From contig JAVRCV020000046.1 in the NCBI GenBank assembly GCA_034530615.2, positions 1 to 64,000 of the forward strand: 64,000 nucleotides of DNA. The letters are read 5' to 3'. Shown piece after piece: positions 4,481-56,720 of this stretch. How positions within the stretch are numbered: the stretch's first letter is position 1; each line of letters opens with the position of its first letter. Source of the DNA: Aulosira sp. ZfuVER01. Its GTDB lineage: Bacteria; Cyanobacteriota; Cyanobacteriia; Cyanobacteriales; Nostocaceae. The translations under genes and the position numbers were made by a program. The notes under the pieces were generated by a model. That model searched no databases. It saw nothing but the letters and a program-made list of their open reading frames with translations, and was not told the DNA's origin.

Positions 4481-4546
4481 TCGAACGACAAGCAGCTTCG
4501 CGTCTACACATTTTTCATAATTTCAAATTGGTATCGTGTTGAGAGT

Positions 4547-4712
4547 CTTCAAAGTCGTTTTGATTGGCTTCAAAGTCGTTTTGATCGGCTTCAAAGTCGT
4601 TTTGATTGGCTTCAAAATCGTTTTGATTAGCTTCAAAATCGTTTTGATTGGCTTCAATGTCATTTTGAATGTCTTCAATATCGTATTGATGGCTTCAGAG
4701 TTGTCTTGAGGT
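4547..4712. repeat. 21-bp tandem repeat, about 8 units
   Basis: Unit cttcaaagtcgttttgattgg starts at 4547, 4568, 4589, 4610 and 4631, then decays. Confidence 0.9.
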
Positions 4713-4857: not shown

Positions 4858-7800
4858 CTACAACGGAGGGAACCTCCGCAACGCAGTGGCTCCCCTGCCC
4901 TCTGCCTTTAAATCATCGCAGAGATGCCTGTCACTCTCACTCAAATTAACATTAGGATTCTTTAAATAAACTTGCAACCACTTGCAACCCCGCACCAACA
5001 ACTCATCTAAATTCTCCACAGGCCACAACCGCGCTGTATTATCATCTGATGCGGTGGCGATGGTTTTGCCATCGGGGCTAAAACTCACACTCCAGACACC
5101 GCCGTGATGCCCTTTGAATTCTTGTAGGATTTGCCCTTGCAGGTTCCACAACCGCGCTGTATTGTCCAATGAGGCGGTAGCGATGGTTTTGTCGTCGGGG
5201 CTAAAACTCACCAATAAGACAACGCCGTGATGCCCTTTGAATTCTTGTAGGATTTGCCCTTGCAGGTTCCACAACCGCGCTGTATTGTCATCTGATGCGG
5301 TAGCTATGGTTTTGCCGTCGAGGCTGAAACTCACACCCCTGACACTGTCCTGATGACCTTTAAATTCTTGAACTAGTTGCCCTTGCAGGTTCCACAACCG
5401 TGCTGTTTTGTCATCTGATGCAGTGGCGATAGTTTTGCCGTCGGGGCTGAAACTCACACCCCTGACACTGTCCCGATGACCTTTAAATTCTTGAACTAGT
5501 TGCCCTTGCAGGTTCCACAACCGTGCTGTTTTGTCATCTGATGCAGTGGCGATAGTTTTGCCGTCGGGGCTGAAACTCACACTATTGACACCGCCCTGAT
5601 GCCCTTTGAATTCTTGAACTAGTTGCCCTTGCATGTTCCACAATCGCGCTGTTTTGTCTGAGGAGGCGGTGGCAATAGTTTTGCCGTTGGGGCTGAAACT
5701 CACACTTAAGACACTGTCCTGATGCCCTTTAAATTCTTGAACTAGTTGCCCTTGCAGGTTCCACAACCCTGCTGTTTTGTCCAATGAAGCGGTGGCGATG
5801 GTTTTGCCGTCGGGGCTGAAACTCACACCCCAGACACTGAACTGATGACCTTTAAATTCTTGAACTAGTTGCCCTTGCAGGTTCCACAACCGCGCTGTAT
5901 TGTCCGAGGAGACGGTGGCGATGGTTTTGCCGTCGGGGCTGAAATTCACACCCCAGACACTGTCCCGATGACCTTTGAATTCTTGTAGGATTTGCCCTTG
6001 CAGGTTCCACAACCGCGCTGTATTGTCCAATGAAGCGGTGGCGATGGTTTTGCCGTCGGGGCTGAAACTCACACCCCAGACACTGAACTGATGACCTTTA
6101 AATTCTTGAACTAGTTGCCCTTGCAGGTTCCACAACCGCGCTGTATTGTCCAATGAAGCGGTGGCGATGGTTTTGCCGTCGGGGCTGAAACTCACACCCC
6201 AGACACTGAACTGATGACCTTTAAATTCTTGAACTAGTTGCCCTTGCAGGTTCCACAACCGCGCTGTATTGTCAGATGAGGCGGTAGCTATGGTTTTGCC
6301 GTCGGGGCTGAAACTCACACTATTGACACCGCCCTGATGCCCTTTGAATTCTTGAACTAGTTGCCCTTGCAGGTTCCACAACCGCGCTGTTTTGTCAGAT
6401 GAGGCGGTGGCGATGGTTTTGCCGTCGGGGCTAAAACTCACACTATTGACACCGCCCTGATGCCCTTTGAATTCTTGAACTAGTTGCCCTTGCAGGTTCC
6501 ACAACCGCGCTGTTTTGTCAGATGAGGCGGTGGCGATGGTTTTGCCGTCGGGGCTAAAACTCACACTATTGACACCGCCCTGATGCCCTTTGAATTCTTG
6601 AACTAGTTGCCCTTGCAGGTTCCACAACCGCGCTGTTTTGTCAGATGAGGCGGTGGCGATGGTTTTGCCGTCGGGGCTAAAACTCACACTATTGACACCG
6701 CCCTGATGACCTTGAAACTGGTTGCGTTCTTTAATATTGCTCAGAATGGTATGCAAAGCATAAATCGGGCTAAAAGCTGGGTATTGTTCTAGTGGGCGAC
6801 CATCTTTGACAATATTTTTCAACTCTTTACTACTGTGCATTGCCGACATCAGCGATTCTAACTCGGCAGATTCAAATTGTCTTAAGGCATTAACACCCGC
6901 CCGTTCTAAGTTTGTTCCTTGCAATGCTTCTTTTTGTGCTGCTTGGGCGGCAATTTTTGCGCTTTGTGCTTGTGTAAGGTTTGCTTGTGCTTTACTTAAA
7001 GTCTCGTCAGCTTGTCTAGCTTTTAATTCTGCATCCTGTTGTTGTTTTTCTGCCAGTTTTACTTTATCTTCAGCAATTTTTACATTTGTGTTAGCCGTTT
7101 TAATACTCTCTTCTGCTTGGACGTTTTTCTCTTGTAATGTTCCTGCTTGCTGCTTTACCTTTTCTAAATCTGCTTTAGCAGTTAACAAGTTTAGCTTTGC
7201 CTGTTGCGTCGCCTGTTCTGCTAATTTTGATTTATCTTCTGCGGTTTTCTTAGTTTTTAATGCCTCTTGATAGTTTGTTTCTAAACCTTTCTTTTTATTT
7301 TCTAAGTCTTGCGCTTTTTTCTGAATTTCTCCCAGTCGCTTTTCTGTTTGTCGCTTTTGTAAATTTACATTTTCTAGATTGATATTCGCTTCTGTCATTT
7401 TTGTAAGTGAGTCTTGCTTCCCTGCATTGGCAATATTTGCTTCCTTAATTTTATTGACTGCATACAAAGCAGCCATACCTGCCACTACCAATAAAACTAT
7501 TGCTAAACTAGAACTTACCACCAAACTCTTACGCCCTTGCTTAATTTTTTGTTCAGCTTCTCGGTTAGCATCGGCTAATATCTTCTTAGCTGCTTGTTCG
7601 CGCTGTAAATTTTCTTCGGCTTGCAAACGTTGCTCACGTTCCCTCGCTAATTCTTCTAACAAGTCATTTCCCTGTTGCTGGCGAATCAGATCAACTAAAT
7701 AATCATGCACTAATTGATAACGTTCCGCCGGAGATTCTTGTAACAGCAATACCAACCCAGATTTAACAAAAATCTCCAATACCAAATCTAATTTCTCGGC

Positions 7801-12181: not shown

Positions 12182-12300
12182 CAATACGGTTTAGTTAAGG
12201 ATCTTTGTAGGGAACATCCAAAAATTTTTGACAACTAGACAATCTGACTAGCGCCGTGCCCCTACTAGATGTAATCCTTTCCTAATAATCTTCCTGTATT
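12182..12300. mobile_element. Degenerate MITE (CAATACGGTTTAGTTAAG end)
   Basis: Shares core tagacaatct(g/t)actagcgccgtgcccctac with 41401-41502, which ends in the complementary cctaactgaactgtattg. Confidence 0.55.
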
Positions 12301-15823: not shown

Positions 15824-18800
15824 TTACCGATCGCAGATATGGCGATCGCTATTGTTTACATTGGGGTTATTTTGTAGGTAATCTTTGATTTGCAAGCATC
15901 CCCGCCGCCTAAGGTCATCCAAATTTAAATCCCATACTTTTACCCCAACATCTTCACTTGCACTAATTAGCGCCTTACCATCAGGAGTGAAGCTGATGCT
16001 ATTAACTTTACCAGGATGACCTAATAGGGTTTTGAGTAAAGTGCGATCGCTAATATTCCACAGCTTAATTGTACCGTCAGCGCTGCCAGAAGCTAGTATT
16101 TGGCTGTTTGGCAGAAAACTCAAACTCGTTACACCAGCCGTATGTCCAGCGAGAGTGGTAATTAAAGTCCCGTCAGCGACGTTCCAAAGTTTGATATTGT
16201 TATCTAAACTAGCAGCAGCCAGGATTGTGTTATCTGGACTAAATTTTACAGATGCGATCGCTAGTCCATTTCCCTGTAAAGTTCTGACAAGACTACCATC
16301 AAGCCTCCAAAGTTTGACTGTCTTATCGTAACTGCCGGAAGCTAGCATTTGACCATCAGTACTAAAGCTAACGCTGGTTATTTCATCAGTATGTGCTTTG
16401 AGAGTTTGTAGTAATTTCCCATCTGAAATTTGCCATAATTTGATAGTTTTATCTGCATTACCAGAAGCCAGCACCTTCCCATCAGAACTAAAACTAATAC
16501 TAGTTACTCGTGCTGTATGTCCTGTGAGTGTTTGCACTAGAGAATTATTTGCGATATTCCATAATTTAATTGTTTTATCGTCACTGGCAGCAGCGATAAT
16601 TTTGCGATTAGGACTAAAATCTACAGCGTAAATTATCCCTTGATTTCCTAAAATAGTTTTTATAAATTTTCCATTATCTTCCCATATTTTAATTTTGCCA
16701 TCCCAACCAGCCGCAGCAAATATTTTGTTATCAGGACTAACACTCACACTATAAAAACTAGTTTTATCCCGGTTTGTTGCAGAATTATTTACTCGCCAAA
16801 GTCTAACAGTTTTGTCAGCACTAGCAGAAGCGATGATTTTACCATCAGGACTAAAGCTAATCTGATTAATTTGTGCGCCATGCCCTCTGAAAATTTGCTG
16901 TATTTCTATACTTGATTTATCTTGAATACTCCATACTTTCAGTATTGCATCAGCATCACCAGCAGCGAGCAATTTACCATCTGGGCTAAAGCTGATACTG
17001 TTAATTTGATTTGTATTACCTTCAATAGTTTGTAAAAGTATGCCTTGACGATTCCAAAGTTTAATAGTTTTATCCCCACTAGCAGAAGCTATAAATTTAC
17101 CATCGGGGCTAAATCTAACACAAGTCACTCGTTCTTTATGCCCTGACATTGTTTGCAATAACTTCCCATTTGCTTGCCAAAGCTTGACTAAATTATCTTC
17201 ACCACCTGAAGCGATTACTTGACCATCAGGACTTAAGCTAACAGTATTTACCCAACCCTTATGAGCATTCCAGCTTTTAATTAAACTGCCATCGATACGC
17301 CATAATTTGATAGTTTTATCTCGGCTATTAGAAATAAGCGTTTTATCATCTGGACTAAAATCTACACTATTTATAATATCAGTATGCCCAGTAAAAATTT
17401 TGATTAGCTTGCTATCTATAGTATATATTTTAATAATTTTATCTGTACTTGTAGCAATAAATTTCCCATTGTGGCTGAAATTAATATCTATAAATCTACT
17501 TTGATTATCAGTTATAGTATTAATTAATTTCCCTTCTGTATTCCAAATTTTAATTGTACCGTCATCGCTAGCAGAGGCGATAATTTTTCCATTAGGGCTA
17601 AAACTTACAGCATTAACTTGTTGACTATGACCTTGTAAGCGATTAAGTTCTTGAGTTTGCTCAACAGCTTGCTGAAGAGTTGCTACAGTTGCTAACTGAA
17701 TATCTTTGTCTGGTGCAAACACCCGCTTTACTTCTCGCCCAGCTTTTACACTGGCAATTAAAGCTTCTAGTTGCTGATTTGATAATAATAATGCTTCCGA
17801 TGAGGCATTCAAAGCAGAAATTTCGCGTAACTGCGCTGCTTGTTTTTGAAAATAAGCTAATCCACCCAAACCACTAGCAGCAATTCCCAAAACGCTGATA
17901 ACTGCAATAGCTTTTTGCGCTTGTCGAAGTCGCTTTTTCTGTTCAAATTGTTGTCGTTGTCTTTCTTCTAAACAAGCAGCAATGAAACGTTGAACATCTT
18001 GAGATAACTCATCCGTATATTTGACATAGATTTCTTCCGCCTCTGCCAAACGGATACCTTGCAACAAAAAATCAGCTTCTTCAGAATTATATTTCCACAA
18101 AGCTGCCGCTTGTTCAATTTGACGTTGCGATCGCAACCTACTGCGATTCTCCTCCAACCACCAGCGCAAAGTTGACCAATGGCGAATCAATATTTCATGC
18201 GCCACCTCAATAGTTACCGCCGACGCATTAGGACTGACACGGAGACTGTCTGACGCGGAGACGCGGAGAGATTTTAATGATAGATTACTCGAACTAGATA
18301 TCACAGATTCTCCCTCATCTGCATATCTTCCCATCTCCGTGTCCCCGCGTCCCCGCGTCCCCGCGTCTCCTTTACTCTCCTCTTCCAAATTCACCACCAC
18401 TAACTTCGCAGCAGTTAACACTTGCAGCGTTCTTTCCACCAACGCCGCCGGATATTTTTGCACCACTAACTCTGATTTCAGCACCCTGCGCCTGGTATCT
18501 TCTGTACCATCGCCTAATTGAGTGAGAGAGAGAAAAATCCACCTTGCACAATCTTGAGCTTGGGTATCTAAACTTTCATAAACCGCTTGGGCTTTACGTT
18601 CCAATGCGCCCTTAATTCCACCCACCTGTTGCTGATACGCCGCTAGAGTCAGTTCCCCCTCTTGCCGAAATTCCCACAACTGGTCTAGTACAAATTCTAA
18701 CAGCGGTAAATCTCCCGCCGAGTGGTTTAACTCCTGTACCAGTACTTCCACCAGTTCCGGTTCTACTTTTAAGCTGACTTGTTCCGCTGGATTAATAATG

Positions 18801-21091
18801 ACACGCCGATAATCGCGATCGCTCAAATTAGGCGGAACTAAAACACTCGATTCTTGCAATAAACTCGCCAGTGCAGGTACTTCCAAGCAAGCAGCAATAA
18901 AATCTGCCCGCAAAGTAACGACTAATTTAAACTTATCAGCAGCATATTCTATTGCTCCCAACACCAAATCTAAAAATCGCTGTCTATCTTCACTAGGCGC
19001 AAGCGTAAACAATTCCTCAAACTGGTCTACCACCAACACCACCACAGTTTCAGGCCGGCTACGCAACCAGTAAACAAAGCCTTCCACCCCCTGATACAGC
19101 ATCCCCTCTAACACCAGTTCAGGAGACGAAGAATCTTCAATTCCCCCTTGTCCCCCCTTTCCCCGCGTCCCCGCGTCACTCCGTCTCCGTGTCTCCGTAT
19201 CCCCTCCCAACCGCTTCGCCAACTCTTCCAACGGACGCGCACCGGGACGCAAACATTTAATTAACCAAGAATCGCTTCCCGGTAATTGTTTACCAAGACG
19301 CAATTGCGCCATTAATCCCGCTTGTACAACGGAAGATTTACCACTACCAGAAGCACCCACTACAGCTAAGAAAGATTTATGTGCTATCTGACTAATTAAA
19401 TGCTGGGTTAAAGATTCTCTACCAAAAAAATATTGCGCATCTTCTTCAACAAAAGCCCTTAATCCCCGGTAAGGACAAATTTTTAAATCTAATGCTGCTT
19501 TTTTATGACTACGTGACCCAGTTGTAGCAGGAATAATTTCAATTACACCTTGAGTTCCTGATAGCCAAAAATGCAGTGGTAGAAATGGGGTACTTTGTGT
19601 TGCTAGTTGAATTTGCAATTGCGTAATCCAACCTGCTACAGATAAACCTGCTGGTTGATTAGCAGCTTTTAAAGTAGCGATAAGTATTTGCGCAAAGAAT
19701 TCTGGATTATCTTTTGGGGAAGTAGCAGCAATAATACATTGCCCCTTTTCCAATTCTAACTGCAAGTCTTCCACCCATTCCTGAATGGAAGAAACAACAG
19801 TTGCGACTACAGAAAAATCTAAAATAATGATTTGCTGGGATATTTGCGAACGGCGTAATTGTTGCCTTAACCAAGAACGACTGAGCCAAATATCTTCGGC
19901 TATTAATAATGCTGCTTCTCCTGCTGGGGTTTCTTCTAAAATTCCGCGTAGATATAACAATACAGTTGCAGCTTCTTCATTTCTGGCGTGGCGTTGTTGA
20001 TTTGCCGAACCTAAACATTCTTGAATAGCAGCACGAACGTCCTTAGCAGTTGTTTCCACCGAACGAGCCACATATTCTAACTCAAAATCGCCAGCATCAA
20101 CCAATATCTTACTAAAATCTAGAGTTGTTTGATAGCCGCTAAATCTCTCAATTACTAGCGCTATTCTTGAAGGGGTCGATTCTGCGATCGCCGGAATTGA
20201 ACCTAAAATTAATTCCCCGACTCCTTCAACGATTCGCTTAGGTGTTTGTAAGGGGTATTCGCTAAAAAGTTGGGTATCTCCTTTACCGCGTTTTTGTTGA
20301 TTAATTAAGCGTAACTGTTGATTAGTTTTATCAATATATTGCAACGTTTGATGATAAACATAGCGATAAAGCCCATCAGCAAAAATTACACCTTGGGCAT
20401 CAGCAGCATCACCATTTAAACCCCGCATTAAAAAATAAGTAAATACCCCATGACCCAGTTCGGGAAACTCCCAAGATTGCTGATTAATATCGCAGGAAAG
20501 TAATGCATAAAAGCCTTTACCTTTACTAGCATTACGCTGCAAAGCGTCTACTAATTGCGGAGTAGGATTTAGCAATGGTTCTGCAACTGCTCCCCTCAGA
20601 GTCATTCCCCCGCTATGGCAAGCATCCAACCACACTAACTGATTTTGTACCCCACTTTTACTTAACTGTGCTAACAGTTCTTTAACAGGTAAACCAGTCT
20701 TTTCTAAATTATCTTTGTGCGTATCTGCCAAACACAAAAATGCTTCTTGAGTATTTGGCTGTAGCATTCCATGACCAGAAAAATAAAATAGAACCGTGTC
20801 AATCGGTTGGGCATCAACAGCAATTTGCCGTAAACTTTCGCGCACAGTTGCTAATAGTGGCAACTGATGAGCAAAATCGTGATAAATTTTTACCTGTCTT
20901 TGGGGAAACTGTTCTTTAGTTGCGCTTGCTAAAGCTTCAGCTAATACCTGACAATCAACTGCTGAATAACGTAGCGAAGGAAGTTGATCGTCTTGGTATT
21001 GATTGACACCCACCAGTAACAACCACAATTTCGGGGCAATTGTTTGTTTAGCTTGACTTGAACGACTGGTAGTAACACCGCGTGGACACAT
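15824..21091 (-). CDS. Caspase (peptidase C14)-STAND NTPase-TM-WD40 protein
   Basis: Catalytic dyad FSGHG / LDACHSG; CPYRGL; Walker [10 protein letters not shown]; Walker B VVDQFEE; TM helix; many diverged WD40 repeats. Confidence 0.9.
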
Positions 21092-41400: not shown

Positions 41401-41502
41401 AGTAGGGGTGCAGCATCCTAAATATTGTTCACAATTAGACAATCTTACTAGCGCCGTGCCCCTACAAAATATAATCCATTACAGCCTAACTGAACTGTAT
41501 TG
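41401..41502. mobile_element. Partial MITE related to 12182-12300
   Basis: Shared core sequence; terminal cctaactgaactgtattg. Confidence 0.55.
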
Positions 41503-51379: not shown

Positions 51380-51751
51380 AGAGAATTTAGGCAGTCGTAG
51401 CCGACGCAGAAGTTTGATAAAGACATTTATAACTTTGGCGTAGGGAATTTTCCTTAGTTAGTTTTATTTCCACATCGTATATAAACAAGAGATATAGCCA
51501 CTTGTGTTACATTGCTTGTTGCAGCTATAAATAGAGTTAATTGCTATCCAAAATATAATATACTACATATAATACATTATATTTTTAAACTCTGCAAATG
51601 TCGTTTTTTACAGTTCAGCTGCGGGATAATTGCTCTTCAAAACTGGATTAAAGAGGTAACGCACTCATGAGTTTCCTTATGAGCGACGCTGCTGCTACTT
51701 TTTCTAAGACTATCCAAAGGCAATCCAGAAAAAGATAACATCTCTCAAATA

Positions 51752-51852
51752 TAGAAATCATACTTGAATCTTGCTAAGTATACTTAGAAACAAACCTTTG
51801 TATGGCAAGCTTCTAGCTAGTCTGGTTTTTCAGAAATCAAATATGAGTCCTA
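51752..51852. mobile_element. 101-bp MITE with TA duplication (IS630-like behaviour)
   Basis: caaaTA[tagaaatcatacttga…tcaaatatgagtccta]TAtgcc; copy B has the empty site caaaTAtgcc. Confidence 0.85.
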
Positions 51853-52112
51853 TATGCCATTCAGTTTGCCAGTTCCGCCAAAGTAGGATGTGTCAAACGA
51901 AGGGACATACTCAAGTTAGGGAGGAAACAATTGCACAGGCTTCTTAGCTGTGACTACTGAGTATAACGAGTATAAACAGTAGCATAACAACAACATCGCA
52001 GAGTTTACTAAACTAAAACAGATTTTGTCCGTTTCGGCTTTTTTCCCAGTCGCGTAAATGCGAAGTAGCCTTGTCCCTAACAAGGTGCCCGTACCCAGGG
52101 CGAGGGTGTGTT

Positions 52113-52186
52113 TGCTGAAATTACAGGAGTTTACCTGTTACTGATCGCCGATACAGCGATCGCTCTACTAAAAGAGTTAACTTTCA
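52113..52186 (-). pseudogene. Degenerate tRNA, homologous to the tRNA-CAT at 55155-55229
   Basis: tgaaagt-ta-actc…gagc-gatcg…acagg-taaact-cctgt-aatttca: acceptor, D and T stems still recognisable; T and anticodon loops are broken. Confidence 0.6.
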
Positions 52187-52382
52187 AAGGGTAGTAACAT
52201 ATCGTTCCACGGTATACACTCAATCCAAAGGTTGGCGTACCAGTTGGGCATACAGAACCCGCACTAATGCTTTGCAAAATGTCTTCCTACCTCGCTACTC
52301 AATGTAACTCAAGCAAATATGAGGAGACACGCGGTAATTACTTAATGAAATACTCACTTCAAGAGCCAAAGGTTTGAAATTA

Positions 52383-54398
52383 TTAAGCAGCAAGCTGCCT
52401 TTGCTGGTGTAATGGAAGTGAAATCACAAATTCTGTACCTTTACCAAACATAGAATTACACTGTAATTTCCCTTGATGTTTTTCAGTGACAATTTGATAA
52501 CTGATAGATAAAGCCAAGCCTGTACCTTTACCAACAGGTTTAGTAGTAAAAAAGGGATTAAATAATTGTTTTTGTAAAGCTTCAGGAATTCCAACTCCAT
52601 TATCAATAATGCGAATAATTATTTGTTGGTCAATAGTAAGTTCAGTTTGAATACGAATTTGACCTTTACTTTTTCTTGATGAAGTAGACGCGCTTTCTTC
52701 ATTATTAGTTACGGGACGATGAATTACGAATAACTCTTCTATGGCATCAATTGCATTTGTGAGAAGATTGATAAACACCTGATTGAGTTCTCCGGCGTAG
52801 CATTCTACTAGTGGCAGGTCAGCATATTCTTTGATAATTTCAATAGCTGTACGATCTGGTGTAGCCTTGAGGCGGCTTTCTAAAAACATTAGTGTACTAT
52901 CGATACCTTCATAGATATTTACCATCTTCATTTCTGCCTCATCTAACCGTGAAAAGTTTCTCAGAGATAGCACAATTTGTTTAATTCTCTCAGCACCGAC
53001 TTTGATCGAATTCAGCAACTTCGGCAAGTCTTGCATTAAGAAATTAAATTCGATTGCTTCTTCCTCATCTTGAATTTCTACTGCTGGCTGGGGATAGTGA
53101 TGTTGGTAAAGTTGCAGTAATCTGAGCAAATCTTGGATATATTCATGGGCGGGAGTAATATTACTATAAATAAAGCTAACTGGGTTGTTAATTTCGTGTG
53201 CTACTCCTGCTACTAACTGACTTAAGCTAGACATTTTTTCAGCTTGAATCAATTGCGCTTGAGTTTGTTGTAATTCTCGTAAAGCTTGCTCAAGTTCTTG
53301 CGCTTGCTGTTGCAGTGTTTCTTGTTGTTGACTAAGCAACACAACCTGCATTTTTGCTTGTTGAGATAGTTGTATTTGTCGCCAAGCGATAATTGCTGCG
53401 ATTCCAAGCAATCCACCCAATATAGAAGCAAGTAAGTTCAGTGCGTATAGTTGAGATTCAATGTTTTCACGCGGTATAACTAGAGCTATTGACCAATTCG
53501 CTTGTTTGAGATGACCATAAAGAACATATTTGTTAGTGCCATCAATGGAAATAAGTTCTATTCCTTGCTGTTGCTTCACCATTAGACTAGCCAGTGCCGC
53601 TAAGTTAGGATCAGTTGACTCTAGAAAACTAGGAGCAGGTTTTTCTTGTGTTGACATCAACGCTGGATTGGGATGAATAATTGGCTCTCCCTTAGAGTTG
53701 AGTGCAAATGCATAACTACCATTACCGTAATGTAATCTGTTGACTACTTGAGTAATTCGATCTACCTTTAAGCTACCGTTGATAACTCCAATGGGACGAC
53801 TGTTAAGGTCATAACTTTGGCGAATAGGAGAAGCGATCGCCACAGAAGGAATTCCAGTAGTCCGACTGATGAAGGGATCTGATATATTGACTTCTCCTGC
53901 CATTGCTTTTTGAATAAAATCCCGATCCTTGTTATTGGTATCTGCTTTACCTACCTCAGTGTTGTAATAGGAACCGTTCGGCAGCGATACTGCCATTTTA
54001 GAAAATTCCCCAGTGCGCTTAATTTCTGCGTTTAAATATGGTTGAATAACTTTCCAATCTAAAGAACGCGCCACATCTGTATTAGCAATAGTTTGAATTT
54101 CAATAGAGCAAATTGCTAACCATTGATCGATCTCATCAGTTCCTTGACGAACCTGAAGCAGGGCTTTTTCCTGAAGTTGTTGAACAATTAACTCTCTGAC
54201 TATCAAGTAGCTAGCAATACCAATTACCCCTATTGCTAAGGTAGAGCCAATCAAAATCAGTGGTGTTTTCAGATTAGGCAGTTGCTTTTTTGGCACAGGT
54301 ATGGATTGCCTAACTTTGAAAAATTCACGTAATAGTAGATAAGGCATGATAGTCAGCAGTGAAAAACTATAGGTATACTTGTTACCTATAGTTCCCAT
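52383..54398 (-). CDS. Cache-domain sensor histidine kinase
   Basis: Two TM helices around a Cache domain; AHEINNP, QVFINLLTNAIDA, DNGVGI, PFFTTKPVGKGTGL. Start may be 54347. Confidence 0.9.
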   Translation of the reverse strand: MGTIGNKYTYSFSLLTIMPYLLLREFFKVRQSIPVPKKQLPNLKTPLILIGSTLAIGVIGIASYLIVRELIVQQLQEKALLQVRQGTDEIDQWLAICSIEIQTIANTDVARSLDWKVIQPYLNAEIKRTGEFSKMAVSLPNGSYYNTEVGKADTNNKDRDFIQKAMAGEVNISDPFISRTTGIPSVAIASPIRQSYDLNSRPIGVINGSLKVDRITQVVNRLHYGNGSYAFALNSKGEPIIHPNPALMSTQEKPAPSFLESTDPNLAALASLMVKQQQGIELISIDGTNKYVLYGHLKQANWSIALVIPRENIESQLYALNLLASILGGLLGIAAIIAWRQIQLSQQAKMQVVLLSQQQETLQQQAQELEQALRELQQTQAQLIQAEKMSSLSQLVAGVAHEINNPVSFIYSNITPAHEYIQDLLRLLQLYQHHYPQPAVEIQDEEEAIEFNFLMQDLPKLLNSIKVGAERIKQIVLSLRNFSRLDEAEMKMVNIYEGIDSTLMFLESRLKATPDRTAIEIIKEYADLPLVECYAGELNQVFINLLTNAIDAIEELFVIHRPVTNNEESASTSSRKSKGQIRIQTELTIDQQIIIRIIDNGVGIPEALQKQLFNPFFTTKPVGKGTGLALSISYQIVTEKHQGKLQCNSMFGKGTEFVISLPLHQQRQLAA

Positions 54399-54409
54399 TC
54401 CATGAAATT

Positions 54410-54666
54410 TCAGAACATTTTGATTTCATATTTTTCGTTAATACGTTTAATTTGTTTTTGAAACTCTGTACCTTTTTGGGGATTGACCATTGCCACAAAG
54501 TTTGCAAATCCCGTTATTGACGCAATGAGGTTACGTGAGTTGCCCCAATGCTAATTTCCATCGCTGCCGCAATTTCTTCGGCAGTGTTGTATAGCTCTAA
54601 GCCATAATTATTCAAGCATTCGATGTTTCCTTGTTTGCTATTTTTCAAACCCATTGAAACATCCTC
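54410..54666 (-). pseudogene. Internally deleted remnant of a retron-type reverse transcriptase
   Basis: EDVSMGL…YGLELYNTAEEIAAAMEISIG(QL) joined near 54536, with a frame change, to NLIASITGFANFVAMVNPQKGTEFQKQIKRINEKY…*. I recall these as the segments flanking the RT core in cyanobacterial retron-like RTs. No YADD core remains. Confidence 0.65.
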
Positions 54667-55054
54667 TTAAAATATTTACTAATTTGTAATATGCAAACTC
54701 AATTTTATTTGAAAACTCTGCAAATGCAGGTGTTTACAGTTCAGTTGCGGACAAATACATCTCCAAAACTGGATCAAGATTGCTGCTACTTATCCTTAAA
54801 CTACCCAAGGGCAATCTAGAAAAAGAAAACAGCGCTCAAATATGCCGTTCACTTTGCCAGTTCCAGAAATCTAGATCTAACAAGAGAAGGGACATACTCA
54901 AGTTAGGGAGAAATGCATTTGCGCTAGCTTCTTTACTGTTACTACAGACATCACATCGTAATGAGCAGTAGTAAGCACCTACATCACAGAGTCTTTACTA
55001 AAGTTAAATTAGCTACCGTGACGGGGTAGTGTCTTTTGACCCGGACAGGGTTTG

Positions 55055-55127
55055 TGGAGCAGAAAGTGGATTTGAACCACTGACATTTGGATACTAGTCC
55101 AACGAGCTACCACTGCTCTATTCTGCA
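55055..55127 (-). tRNA. tRNA-like gene (fMet-like D and T arms, 6-nt anticodon loop, encoded CCA)
   Basis: gcagaa/ttctgc acceptor, gagc-agtggta-gctc, ttgga-ctagta-tccaa, agtgg-ttcaaat-ccact, cca. Confidence 0.6.
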
Positions 55128-55154
55128 AATTTGCCTTTTTCCCTAGACAAATGT

Positions 55155-55229
55155 TGGTCGAAAGTACAGGAATCGAACCTGCAACCAATCGATTATGAGT
55201 CGATCGCTCTACCAGTGAGCTAACTTCCG
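55155..55229 (-). tRNA. tRNA with CAT anticodon (Ile2 or elongator Met), encoded CCA
   Basis: cggaagt/actttcg, gctc-actggta-gagc, atcga-ctCATaa-tcgat, gcagg-ttcgatt-cctgt, a-cca. Confidence 0.88.
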
Positions 55230-55231
55230 GG

Positions 55232-55301
55232 AGTTTGATGTAGGACTCGAACCTACGCCCCACCGATCGCTTCGGCTGCTCTACCACTGAGCTAATCAAA
55301 C
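55232..55301 (-). tRNA. tRNA-like gene with a 5-nt anticodon loop
   Basis: gtttgat/atcaaac, gctc-agtggta-gagc, gccga-agcga-tcggt, gtagg-ttcgagt-cctac. Confidence 0.65.
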
Positions 55302-55416
55302 AATGGAGTAGTGACGCATTACTCGGCGATATACGCTCAATCCAGAGGTTGGCGCACCAGTCGGGCATACTGAACCCGAACCATAGCTTTGCTTATGTAT
55401 TACTATTCCACTACTT

Positions 55417-55460
55417 AATGTAACATAGGCAAATCTTAGGCGGTAGTGAATAATTACTTA
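55417..55460 (-). promoter_or_regulatory. Putative promoter of ncRNA copy B (-10 TACATT, upstream TAAGTAATTA box)
   Basis: The same two motifs at the same spacing precede copy A (52301-52306 and 52335-52344). Confidence 0.5.
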
Positions 55461-55619
55461 CTTCCAATATTTAGGCAAAAACCATCACATCTCATGGCTG
55501 ATGATACATGACGTAGCTCAAGTTTTAGTAGACTGTTCGGCAGAAAACTGGGATGCGGAAATTGCTACCCATAAAATAGGTAGCAATCTTTGGTGTTCTA
55601 CACCTGATAAAAATTAAGG

Positions 55620-55643
55620 AAGGGTGAGAAATAACCCACCCTG
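55620..55643 (-). terminator. Hairpin downstream of nifH
   Basis: agggtg…caccct immediately after the nifH stop. Confidence 0.4.
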
Positions 55644-55652
55644 TCACATTAT

Positions 55653-56720
<1,068 letters not shown>

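Follow-up and report, generated by a model that had tools for sequence, protein, structure and literature searches.

The RT remnant behind unit B

The window, as the whole 64,000-nucleotide stretch analysed is called here, comes from the cyanobacterium Aulosira sp. ZfuVER01 (contig JAVRCV020000046.1). Its minus strand carries two paralogous non-coding units of ~720 nt, B (~55425-54702) and A (~52308-51576), with the remains of a reverse transcriptase (RT) gene behind unit B and a gene for an SPFH/Band 7 protein behind unit A. Across relatives, the unit is made by a ~120-nt 5' element, two or three tRNA-like genes and a structured RNA of ~300 nt, in this order; the RNA is named SAR here, and its copy in unit B is the "ncRNA copy B" of an earlier note on this DNA, in which the RT remains had been pointed out. 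Genomes and loci are denoted by G and L numbers, respectively, and the features are collected in Table 1.

On the minus strand, positions 54514-54666 translate into EDVSMGLKNSKQGNIECLNNYGLELYNTAEEIAAAMEISIGATHVTSLRQ and positions 54410-54532 into NLIASITGFANFVAMVNPQKGTEFQKQIKRINEKYEIKMF; no competing open reading frame (ORF) of at least 30 amino acids (aa) was found on the plus strand between 54400 and 54690. A 321-nt query (54380-54700) was compared by blastn to 41 genomes, that of the window and 40 relatives, and five of them gave a match. In G008, which belongs to the same genus, a single contig matched in two collinear pieces ~800 bp apart (query 1-150, 90% identity, E 4e-52; query 149-282, 88%, E 2e-42), which are the ends of a single intact, syntenic ORF of 351 aa (P0003). 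When the two loci were aligned by blastn, window positions 55700 to 54551 corresponded to 10270 to 9118 of the G008 locus L010 (88.9% over 1158 nt), and 54552 to 54419 to 8320 to 8187 (88%); homology to G008 breaks off at 54418/54419, exactly in the last codons of the RT. The 797 bp absent from the window (L010 8321-9117) are codons 36-301 of 351, and with them went the whole RVT_1 domain (aa 61-271), the YVDD box and all catalytic and polymerase motifs, so that no complete RT domain with a catalytic YxDD is left in the window gene. The junction falls at 54552/54551, reads AG followed by CATTGGGG, and features a 2-nt microhomology (AG). Because division of 797 by three leaves two, the frame is shifted downstream of the deletion. 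The C-terminal piece starts with HWGNSR, ends with EIKMF, and spans 46 codons (54550-54413) before the stop at 54412-54410. HMMER aligned the window pieces to P0003 at aa 1-38 (E 1.4e-10) and aa 290-345 (E 9e-19), and they are 71-75% identical to its two ends; the window peptides, P0001 and P0002, matched no Pfam family. The segment 54654-54410 is, as judged from these alignments, a pseudogene which retains both ends of a ~350-aa RT of the retron family. Having lost the RVT domain and motifs, its product is predicted to be unable to make complementary DNA (cDNA).

No other RT of the family, able to replace the dead one, is present in the window genome. Only the two remnant pieces were matched when it was searched with P0003, and tblastn with a long RT of the same clade, with the SWIM_XIII protein and with p303 (see below) found nothing else. 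The plasmid collection contained no match to the remnant.

P0003 matches Pfam RVT_1 at aa 61-271 (E 7.5e-24). Its best PADLOC model is RT_XIII (E 1.4e-161), on which residues 5-348 align to profile positions 96-433 of 469; the second-best is RT_other (3.2e-92). Scores to the NCBIfam retron models are below cut-off (Ec67 family, 232 bits versus 450; St85 family, 204 versus 235). The protein carries YVDD, VTNATPH and QQEVTG stretches, and the latter two are presumably the retron 'NAxxH' and 'VTG' marks. The window RT is best assigned to the type XIII (Mx162) clade, and within it to a branch of short proteins (~350 aa) which have no N-terminal extension.

The earlier note had described an internally deleted retron-type RT whose catalytic core was wholly missing, and the intact G008 orthologue bears this out. 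Both peptides that it quoted lie on the minus strand where it had read them, and matches to the N-proximal and C-terminal ends of one RT, which it had named as the sign to look for, were both obtained by blastn and HMMER. Its distance of about 50 nt between RNA and RT is close to the value measured, since the ATG at 54654 lies 48-58 nt past the RNA, depending on whether the aligned end of the RNA (54702) or the 3' strand of its closing helix (54732-54712) is taken. The junction, set by the note near 54536, is misplaced by ~15 nt, as the true site lies upstream in the direction of the gene; for this reason the tail of the first peptide, IGATHVTSLRQ, is C-terminal sequence read out of frame. As to the family named in the note, type XIII-like holds, and the 450-500-aa form accompanied by SWIM proteins does not.

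Table 1. Features of the minus strand of the window around the RT remnant
Feature	Position	Strand	Remarks
nifH-type gene	55653..56546	-	upstream of unit B; terminator-like hairpin 55642-55621
5' element of unit B	55307..55425	-	promoter-like start and two hairpins; profile match E 3e-32
tRNA-like gene 1 (called Arg-GCG)	55230..55301	-	short loop; anticodon not conserved among relatives
tRNA-like gene 2 (anticodon CAT)	55155..55229	-	CCA encoded; Rfam 68.1 bits
tRNA-like gene 3	55056..55127	-	initiator-type derived; 6-nt anticodon loop
SAR copy B, 304 nt	54702..55005	-	closing helix 54995-54976 with 54732-54712; nhmmer full length, E 1.7e-92
RT 5' remnant	54550..54654	-	ATG 54654, codons 1-35 (MGLKNSKQGNIECLNNYGLELYNTAEEIAAAMEIS); blastn to G008, translation, HMMER
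Deletion junction	54551..54552	.	797 bp of the orthologue gone, frame shift; blastn
RT 3' remnant, shifted frame	54410..54550	-	HWGNSRNLIASITGFANFVAMVNPQKGTEFQKQIKRINEKYEIKMF and stop, = G008 aa 302-~344; blastn, translation, HMMER
Residual 46-aa open frame	54514..54654	-	N-terminal remnant running into out-of-frame C-terminal segment; no family match
Cache/HisKA/HATPase histidine kinase gene	52383..54398	-	between RT remnant and unit A; absent here in G008, present in G003
5' element of unit A	52191..52308	-	tRNA-like genes behind it degenerate, none called
SAR copy A, 440 nt	51576..52015	-	two insertions; directly upstream of SPFH gene
SPFH/Band 7 gene, ~520 aa	49847..51418	-	constant downstream partner of the RNA unit

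Structure and distribution of SAR

SAR copy B is, by the covariation of its pairs, a real structured RNA, and differs from the canonical msr-msd of cyanobacterial type XIII retrons. RNAalifold folded 32 aligned copies into 47 pairs grouped in seven helices, with 95.7% of the cells paired, and 21 of the 47 pairs feature changes on both sides. None of 500 column shuffles reached any of five measures, and slid controls had 25-41% of the cells paired. The closing helix measures 20 bp by minimum free energy in copy B, and includes 12 covarying pairs in the consensus of the 32 sequences; among the changes are G-U/C-G/A-U, and C-G/U-A in 13 sequences. One of the two hairpins of the 5' element is also supported by covariation across relatives.

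Both SAR and the tRNA-like genes of unit B are intact. A structured non-coding RNA (ncRNA) with terminal inverted repeats is found just upstream of the RT in the window, and the same order is seen in G008 and G634-G636, where SAR ends 40-60 nt before the start of an intact RT.

The only Rfam families matched at gathering thresholds were the three tRNAs, and a search at E ≤5 over 51400-55700 left SAR and the 5' element without a match above threshold; it gave weak rows, at chance level, for RT-9 within the kinase gene and for YrlA across the tRNA-like genes. Homology of SAR to the canonical type XIII ncRNA was considered and rejected, as nhmmer found none, and a shared motif, AACAG...GCC..TGCAAT, is too short to count. 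SAR was searched by nhmmer profiles in place of covariance models, and the most divergent loci (L087-L089) may for this reason hold undetected copies.

SAR copies next to the SPFH gene are marked at the 3' end by a pattern, TTGCAG-17-TAGTAT, conserved in these copies only: it begins with the 3' strand of the closing helix (TTGCAG) and continues, 17 nt further on, with a conserved TGTAGTAT, which the distal copies do not have. In G003 and G637 only the 3' part of the proximal SAR is kept, beside the SPFH gene. The two observations suggest that this segment may be the promoter of the SPFH gene.

Exact copies of a 19-nt SAR motif number 79 among species-representative genomes, nearly all in records with cyanobacterial titles (Nostoc, Calothrix, Tolypothrix, Chlorogloeopsis, Scytonema, Microseira and others), and none was found in viral contigs. 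Three titles are not cyanobacterial (L139, L153 and L154: Galbibacter, an uncultured Acetobacteraceae metagenome-assembled genome, and an uncultured bacterium), and could reflect chance or bin contamination. In the plasmid collection, unit B matched unrelated plasmids only, over short tRNA-like segments.

tRNA-like genes

The three tRNA-like genes of unit B fold as cloverleaves, with scores of 68.1, 55.9 and 53.5 bits versus a Rfam gathering score of 29. A 7-nt loop with a conserved anticodon is not a feature of the set: genes 1 and 3 have short loops in the window, and anticodons vary among loci. Acceptor stems conserved across relatives are GUUUGAU/AUCAAAC in gene 1 and NGRAAGU/ACUUUCN in gene 2, in which the CCA end is often encoded. 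Gene 3 occurs in some lineages only, and the window copy is 77% identical to the initiator-type tRNA-Met of the same genome (C71:37764). Conservation reaches 90% or more in the acceptor, D and T arms, and is lowest in the anticodon region. Twenty kinds of anticodon were called for gene 1 in 34 loci, several in loops of 5, 6, 8 or 9 nt, 12 kinds for gene 2 in 37 loci (CAT in 16), and 5 kinds for gene 3 in 9 loci. In three congeners the anticodon loop of gene 3 differs, being a 6-nt loop in the window, and carrying TAG in one and GAG in the other of the two further copies (L010 9620-9696, L058 9535-9611). The window genome has 74 tRNA calls and a full ordinary set besides these genes; Arg-GCG was found in this unit only. 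As anticodons are not fixed and loops are odd, the tRNA-like genes probably do not serve decoding.

Two further ideas on these genes were abandoned. A G3:U70 pair in gene 2 is not a consistent alanine identity mark, because only about half of the loci carry G at position 3, and the others carry A. Diversification of the anticodons in the manner of diversity-generating retroelements was discarded as well, since species differ from one another by single substitutions in short loops, and a template repeat was not observed. In G044, a group II intron ORF of 562 aa (RVT_N, RVT_1, GIIM and HNH domains; L056 5558-7246, minus strand) sits between tRNA-like genes 1 and 2.

The SPFH gene and the spread of the module

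SAR appears, from gene order among relatives, to be tied most consistently to the tRNA-like genes and the SPFH gene. In 27 of 28 SAR loci, an SPFH gene is found downstream of a SAR copy and on its strand, either directly or past a gene for a ~200-aa OmdA-domain protein. The exception is G264, in which only the OmdA gene follows SAR, and SPFH was found neither in a genome search nor in an 18-kb stretch. Orthologues of the SPFH gene (E ≤1e-100) occur in 43 of 301 genomes sampled in the order, and a blastn search for SAR was positive in 31 of the 301, all of which but G264 carry SPFH. In 15 further SPFH loci, including some in which the protein is only 57-75% identical, a tRNA-like gene lies upstream in all 15, the 5' element in 13, and SAR in 12 (one weak). 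A sample of 401 genomes across the phylum contained the orthologue in 22, all of the same class.

The protein matches Pfam Band_7 (E 1e-28 to 1e-33) at aa ~295-470, and is extended at the N terminus by ~290 aa which contain internal SPFH-like repeats, as denoted by tblastn self-matches. The ratio of nonsynonymous to synonymous substitution rates (dN/dS) was 0.05-0.09 in the pairs measured, which come from genomes other than the RT-less ones listed below.

Short and long RTs

Relatives of P0003 (E ≤1e-40) were found in 80 of the 301 genomes of the order, mostly as frames of 470-500 aa, in a few cases of ~350 aa. In a maximum-likelihood tree of 37 RTs, a branch with support 89/94 separates six short RTs from all 31 long ones; in a FastTree tree of 40 rows, three more short RTs fall in with the six. 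Both trees are unrooted and have no outgroup. Long RTs in the maximum-likelihood tree group by taxonomic family. Values of dN/dS among short RTs (0.14-0.24) point to purifying selection on the intact copies, which have diverged at synonymous sites to a similar degree as the SPFH gene beside them when the same pairs of genomes are compared.

The long RTs are, by their neighbourhood, canonical type XIII members. In 33 RT loci scanned, the SWIM_XIII protein is encoded upstream of the long RT in seven (E 8e-236 for the G250 copy), and p303, a 303-aa protein which has no Pfam or PADLOC match and is possibly the ARM-like partner, directly upstream in ten; in the other 13 long-RT loci, neither was found in the 1.5-kb flanks. 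A conserved RNA of ~270 nt fills the seven SWIM-RT gaps, and features a terminal pairing, a short hairpin, a long hairpin and then a T-run. An nhmmer profile built on seven cyanobacterial ncRNAs of this canonical kind found 23 places, all in long-RT loci, with G250 and G318 each holding a tandem pair between SWIM and p303 (L053 5565-5815 and 6072-6330; L054 4439-4690 and 5655-5905). The same profile found no copy in short-RT loci, in the window or in its genome, and a type XIII msr-msd is thus missing next to the RT in all of them. No SWIM or ARM-like partner was found beside short RTs, either by PADLOC on the neighbours of the G008 gene or by tblastn with SWIM and p303 over the loci scanned; the SWIM/winged-helix and HEAT/ARM-like partners of type XIII systems are likewise absent from the window genome and the G008 locus. 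In G090 (L057 4319-5125 and 8824-11202) p303 and a long RT remain as a pair, no RNA unit is left, and a WD40 gene stands between the pair and a partial SPFH match with a stop.

RT states across module loci

Forty-seven loci of the module were compared: the 28 SAR loci, the 15 further SPFH loci, and four loci from extra records. The RT beside the unit is intact in 12, broken in 5, and in 30 none was found within 4-8 kb upstream. Intact RTs are short in eight loci (G008, G044, G242, G226, G075, G634, G635, G636) and long in four (G202, G264, G250, G318); at a contig end in G103, outside the 47, a short RT is followed by SAR. RTs have been broken in different ways. Codons 36-301 are deleted in the window genome (G000), and a ~40-nt trace is left in G003, in which the ATG is changed to ATA. 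In G299 two overlapping pieces lie in different frames, in G200 residues 14-157 and 296-347 abut, and in G637 residues 16-112 only are fused to a truncated SAR. Intact, broken and absent RTs are met within single genera (G008, G000 and G003 in one; G242 with G226, G299 and G194 in another), and a third genus includes G044 and G103 on one side, G079 and G126 on the other. No RT of the family at E ≤1e-40 was found in six SAR-bearing genomes (G118, G156, G173, G268, G079, G126), and SAR keeps its pairs in the five of these which were aligned or scanned (all but G126). Loss of the RT is, on the pattern across these genomes, recurrent, the RNAs and SPFH persisting.

Every short RT found sits in the SAR/SPFH module, in one of three arrangements: unit, RT, unit, SPFH (G008, G634-G636, the window); RT, SAR, unit, SPFH (G044 and genera of family f36); and RT, unit, SPFH (G242, G226, G075). 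Clade-B short RTs have no conserved RNA upstream, and a 782-nt stretch preceding the RT of G242 is absent in its congener G299. The composite locus conserved in relatives may be written as first unit (5' element, two or three tRNA-like genes, SAR), RT, second unit, SPFH. The earlier note had expected its RNA and tRNAs upstream of intact homologues, and SAR and tRNA-like genes are present there in G008 and G634-G636. The same loci display the classic order of retrons and agree with the note, as far as this genus is concerned, in placing an RNA before the RT in the ancestral locus; as SAR is tied to the tRNA-like genes and SPFH, and persists without RT in many genomes, 'ncRNA-RT' would describe only part of that locus.

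Relation to known systems

Type XIII retrons are defined, in the part of Mestre et al. (2020, PMC7736814) considered here, by SWIM and HEAT/ARM partners, their own ncRNA and vertical inheritance, and include Retron-Mxa1/Mx162, Mxa2/Mx65, Nex2 and Sau1. Putative RTs of Nostoc punctiforme and Trichodesmium had already been placed with Mx162, according to a section of Simon et al. (2019, PMC6868368). The portion of a 2026 survey (PMC13712802) at hand mentions neither cyanobacteria nor SPFH. The literature searched held no description of a retron with SPFH, incidental mentions aside, or of a cyanobacterial retron RT with tRNA-like genes; the supplements of Mestre et al. may list cyanobacterial RTs and predicted ncRNAs.

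The intact orthologue shares with type XIII retrons the best profile, the three motifs listed above and vertical inheritance, as the latter is given in the same part of PMC7736814. It differs in that the N-terminal ~95-130 aa are missing, alignment starting from profile position 96; SWIM and p303 are not found beside short RTs in the loci scanned or in the window genome; the neighbouring RNA is SAR rather than the type XIII ncRNA; tRNA-like genes and SPFH are attached; and the window RT is dead. Canonical cyanobacterial loci (SWIM_XIII, ~270-nt ncRNA, optional p303, long RT of 466-484 aa) have RTs of the same clade, 63-68% identical, and both kinds of locus occur in the same genus, G003 carrying a canonical one elsewhere. 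In contrast to the short-RT loci, they feature another ncRNA sequence, placed upstream of the long RT or p303, are mostly unlinked to the SAR/SPFH module, and their RTs fall on the other side of the tree branch.

tRNA-like modules serve as processing or structural units of ncRNAs in the Y-like RNA YrlA, in mascRNA/MALAT1 and in the tRNA punctuation of mitochondrial transcripts. The window cloverleaves resemble these, since they pass Rfam (53-68 bits), abut each other and another RNA, and have anticodons that are not conserved; their match to YrlA is weak (24.6 bits versus a cut-off of 69). In contrast to such modules, acceptor stems are conserved here far beyond mere processing needs, and processing itself is a prediction. 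The SPFH protein is related to slipin and PA4582-like members of the SPFH/Band 7 group by the Band_7 match, and its Atlas neighbours belong to the slipin family. It differs by its length, by the N-terminal extension, and by the RNA unit that precedes the gene in the loci examined, and was not found as a known retron or defence effector either in PADLOC or in the literature searched.

Since the short lineage has neither the accessory proteins nor the ncRNA of type XIII, and the parts attached to it go unmentioned in the portions of PMC7736814 and PMC6868368 consulted, the locus type is provisionally filed as a variant form not described so far. The dead gene is placed by similarity in a known clade.

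Proposed organization and alternatives

A deleted RT gene is ordinary by itself, and the importance of this one lies in what surrounds it. We consider it highly probable that the window holds a deleted short type XIII RT inside a composite RNA/SPFH locus, to which the RT is an optional companion. The RNA unit would be made as a single precursor from the promoter-like 5' element, and tRNA-maturation enzymes would cut it at the tRNA-like modules, whose anticodons, having no decoding role, would be free to drift. The 3' end of the SPFH-proximal SAR would double as promoter of the SPFH gene. The short RT would accompany the RNA/SPFH module optionally, and the module would keep working without it, which would account for repeated loss or breakage of the RT next to conserved RNAs and a conserved SPFH gene. 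Ranked by confidence, processing of the unit comes first, function of the module without RT second, and use of SAR by the RT third. That the short RT, where present, takes SAR as its template or primer, much as a retron RT would, is possible, and somewhat short of probable.

Some points weigh against this organization. Transcription, processing and cDNA are predicted from sequence alone. The RT-less state was scored over 4-8 kb upstream. The 47 loci were chosen from blast hits, and the four extra loci were picked from five records: in the three chosen for a double match to the SAR motif the RT is intact, and of the two records matched once, G637 contains the broken RT and G638, left unannotated, an unrelated RT elsewhere; the proportions of intact, broken and absent RTs are accordingly not those of a random sample. 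The dN/dS of the remnant versus G008 (0.27, 81 codons) is near that of G044 versus G008 over the same codons (0.18), which suggests that the deletion may be recent, and makes this genome alone uninformative on independence from the RT. A generic promoter scan was not above chance (9 sites found, 12 expected). A closing helix of 12-20 bp and a retron-like distance in four intact loci, finally, would also suit a true retron, of which the RT-less loci may be relics.

This last possibility, which we hold to be unlikely, can be spelled out as a genuine tripartite retron, in which SAR is the msr-msd from which the short RT makes multicopy single-stranded DNA (msDNA), SPFH is the effector, and the tRNA-like genes help processing or stabilization; the window copy would be dead, and RT-less loci decaying or served by another RT. 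Confinement to the module of all nine intact short RTs and of the five broken ones, assigned by similarity, in the samples searched, speaks for it, as do the 40-60 nt that separate SAR from the RT in G008 and G634-G636, the covarying terminal helix, similar to a1/a2, with hairpins inside, the similar synonymous divergence of RT and SPFH in the same genome pairs, and the patchy occurrence of the module (43 of 301 genomes), which resembles that of defence genes. It does not accommodate well the 30 of 47 loci with no RT nearby, nor the six SAR genomes devoid of a family RT at E ≤1e-40, of which the five aligned or scanned keep the SAR pairs, next to an SPFH gene constrained in other genomes (dN/dS 0.05-0.09). 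In the clade-B loci (G242, G226, G075), moreover, the RT is found upstream of the tRNA-like genes and not after SAR; the internal loops of SAR are highly conserved in sequence; and SPFH has no PADLOC match.

Incidental adjacency would mean that the region upstream of the tRNA-like genes is a place where retron RTs landed, or were kept by synteny, with no functional tie. Long RTs next to the module fit this idea, because those of G202, G264, G250 and G318 nest in the ordinary clade of family f36, those of G250 and G318 bring along their own SWIM, canonical ncRNA and p303, and sister genera carry the same retron elsewhere. The short RTs do not, being found only in the module, in three arrangements, in at least five taxonomic families and always on the same strand, with no integrase or mobile-element gene seen next to them, and we regard mere adjacency as quite improbable. 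That the 46-aa frame 54654-54514 is a live small gene is barely credible, because, despite its ATG, its open frame and a TAEEIAAAMEIS stretch which we take to resemble a helix-turn-helix, its last 11 residues are out-of-frame RT sequence, it matches no family, and in G003 the ATG has become ATA and little of the stretch is left.

In the samples searched, a distinct short branch of Mx162-type RTs is confined to one conserved module, non-coding and coding, which combines supernumerary tRNA-like genes with unfixed anticodons, a covarying 300-nt RNA without Rfam family, and an SPFH gene that does not occur apart from them in the loci examined. The intact, frameshifted, internally deleted and absent RTs of three genera are natural knock-outs for the contribution of the RT to the RNA, and make the cellular role of vertically inherited type XIII retrons, a long-open question, testable in culturable Nostoc-type strains. 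A bolder proposal, which we put forward as speculative and doubtful, is that the unit, together with the SPFH protein of 520 aa and the short RT private to the module, makes up an RNA-protein system of filamentous cyanobacteria which derives from a retron and has so far not been described. In it, the RT would reverse-transcribe SAR, or start from the 3' end of a tRNA-like RNA, SPFH would act with this product or with SAR as such, and the RT step would have become dispensable in many lineages. If so, this would be a retron under domestication into an RT-free RNA system.

Repeats elsewhere in the window

Repeats were noted in other regions of the window. A 123-nt repeat, probably coding, occurs in 13 head-to-tail copies, 82-87% alike, at 5023-6798, and ~10 copies of a 123-126-nt repeat lie at 16054-17633; the pattern of the latter resembles the reverse strand of WD40-type repeats. 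Seven copies of a 21-nt tandem repeat are found at 4512-4711, and an 8-nt repeat of the CCCCGCGT type forms two patches, at 18321-18385 and 19147-19227. A 61-nt sequence occurs twice, 29 kb apart (12220-12280 and 41420-41480), with 85% identity.

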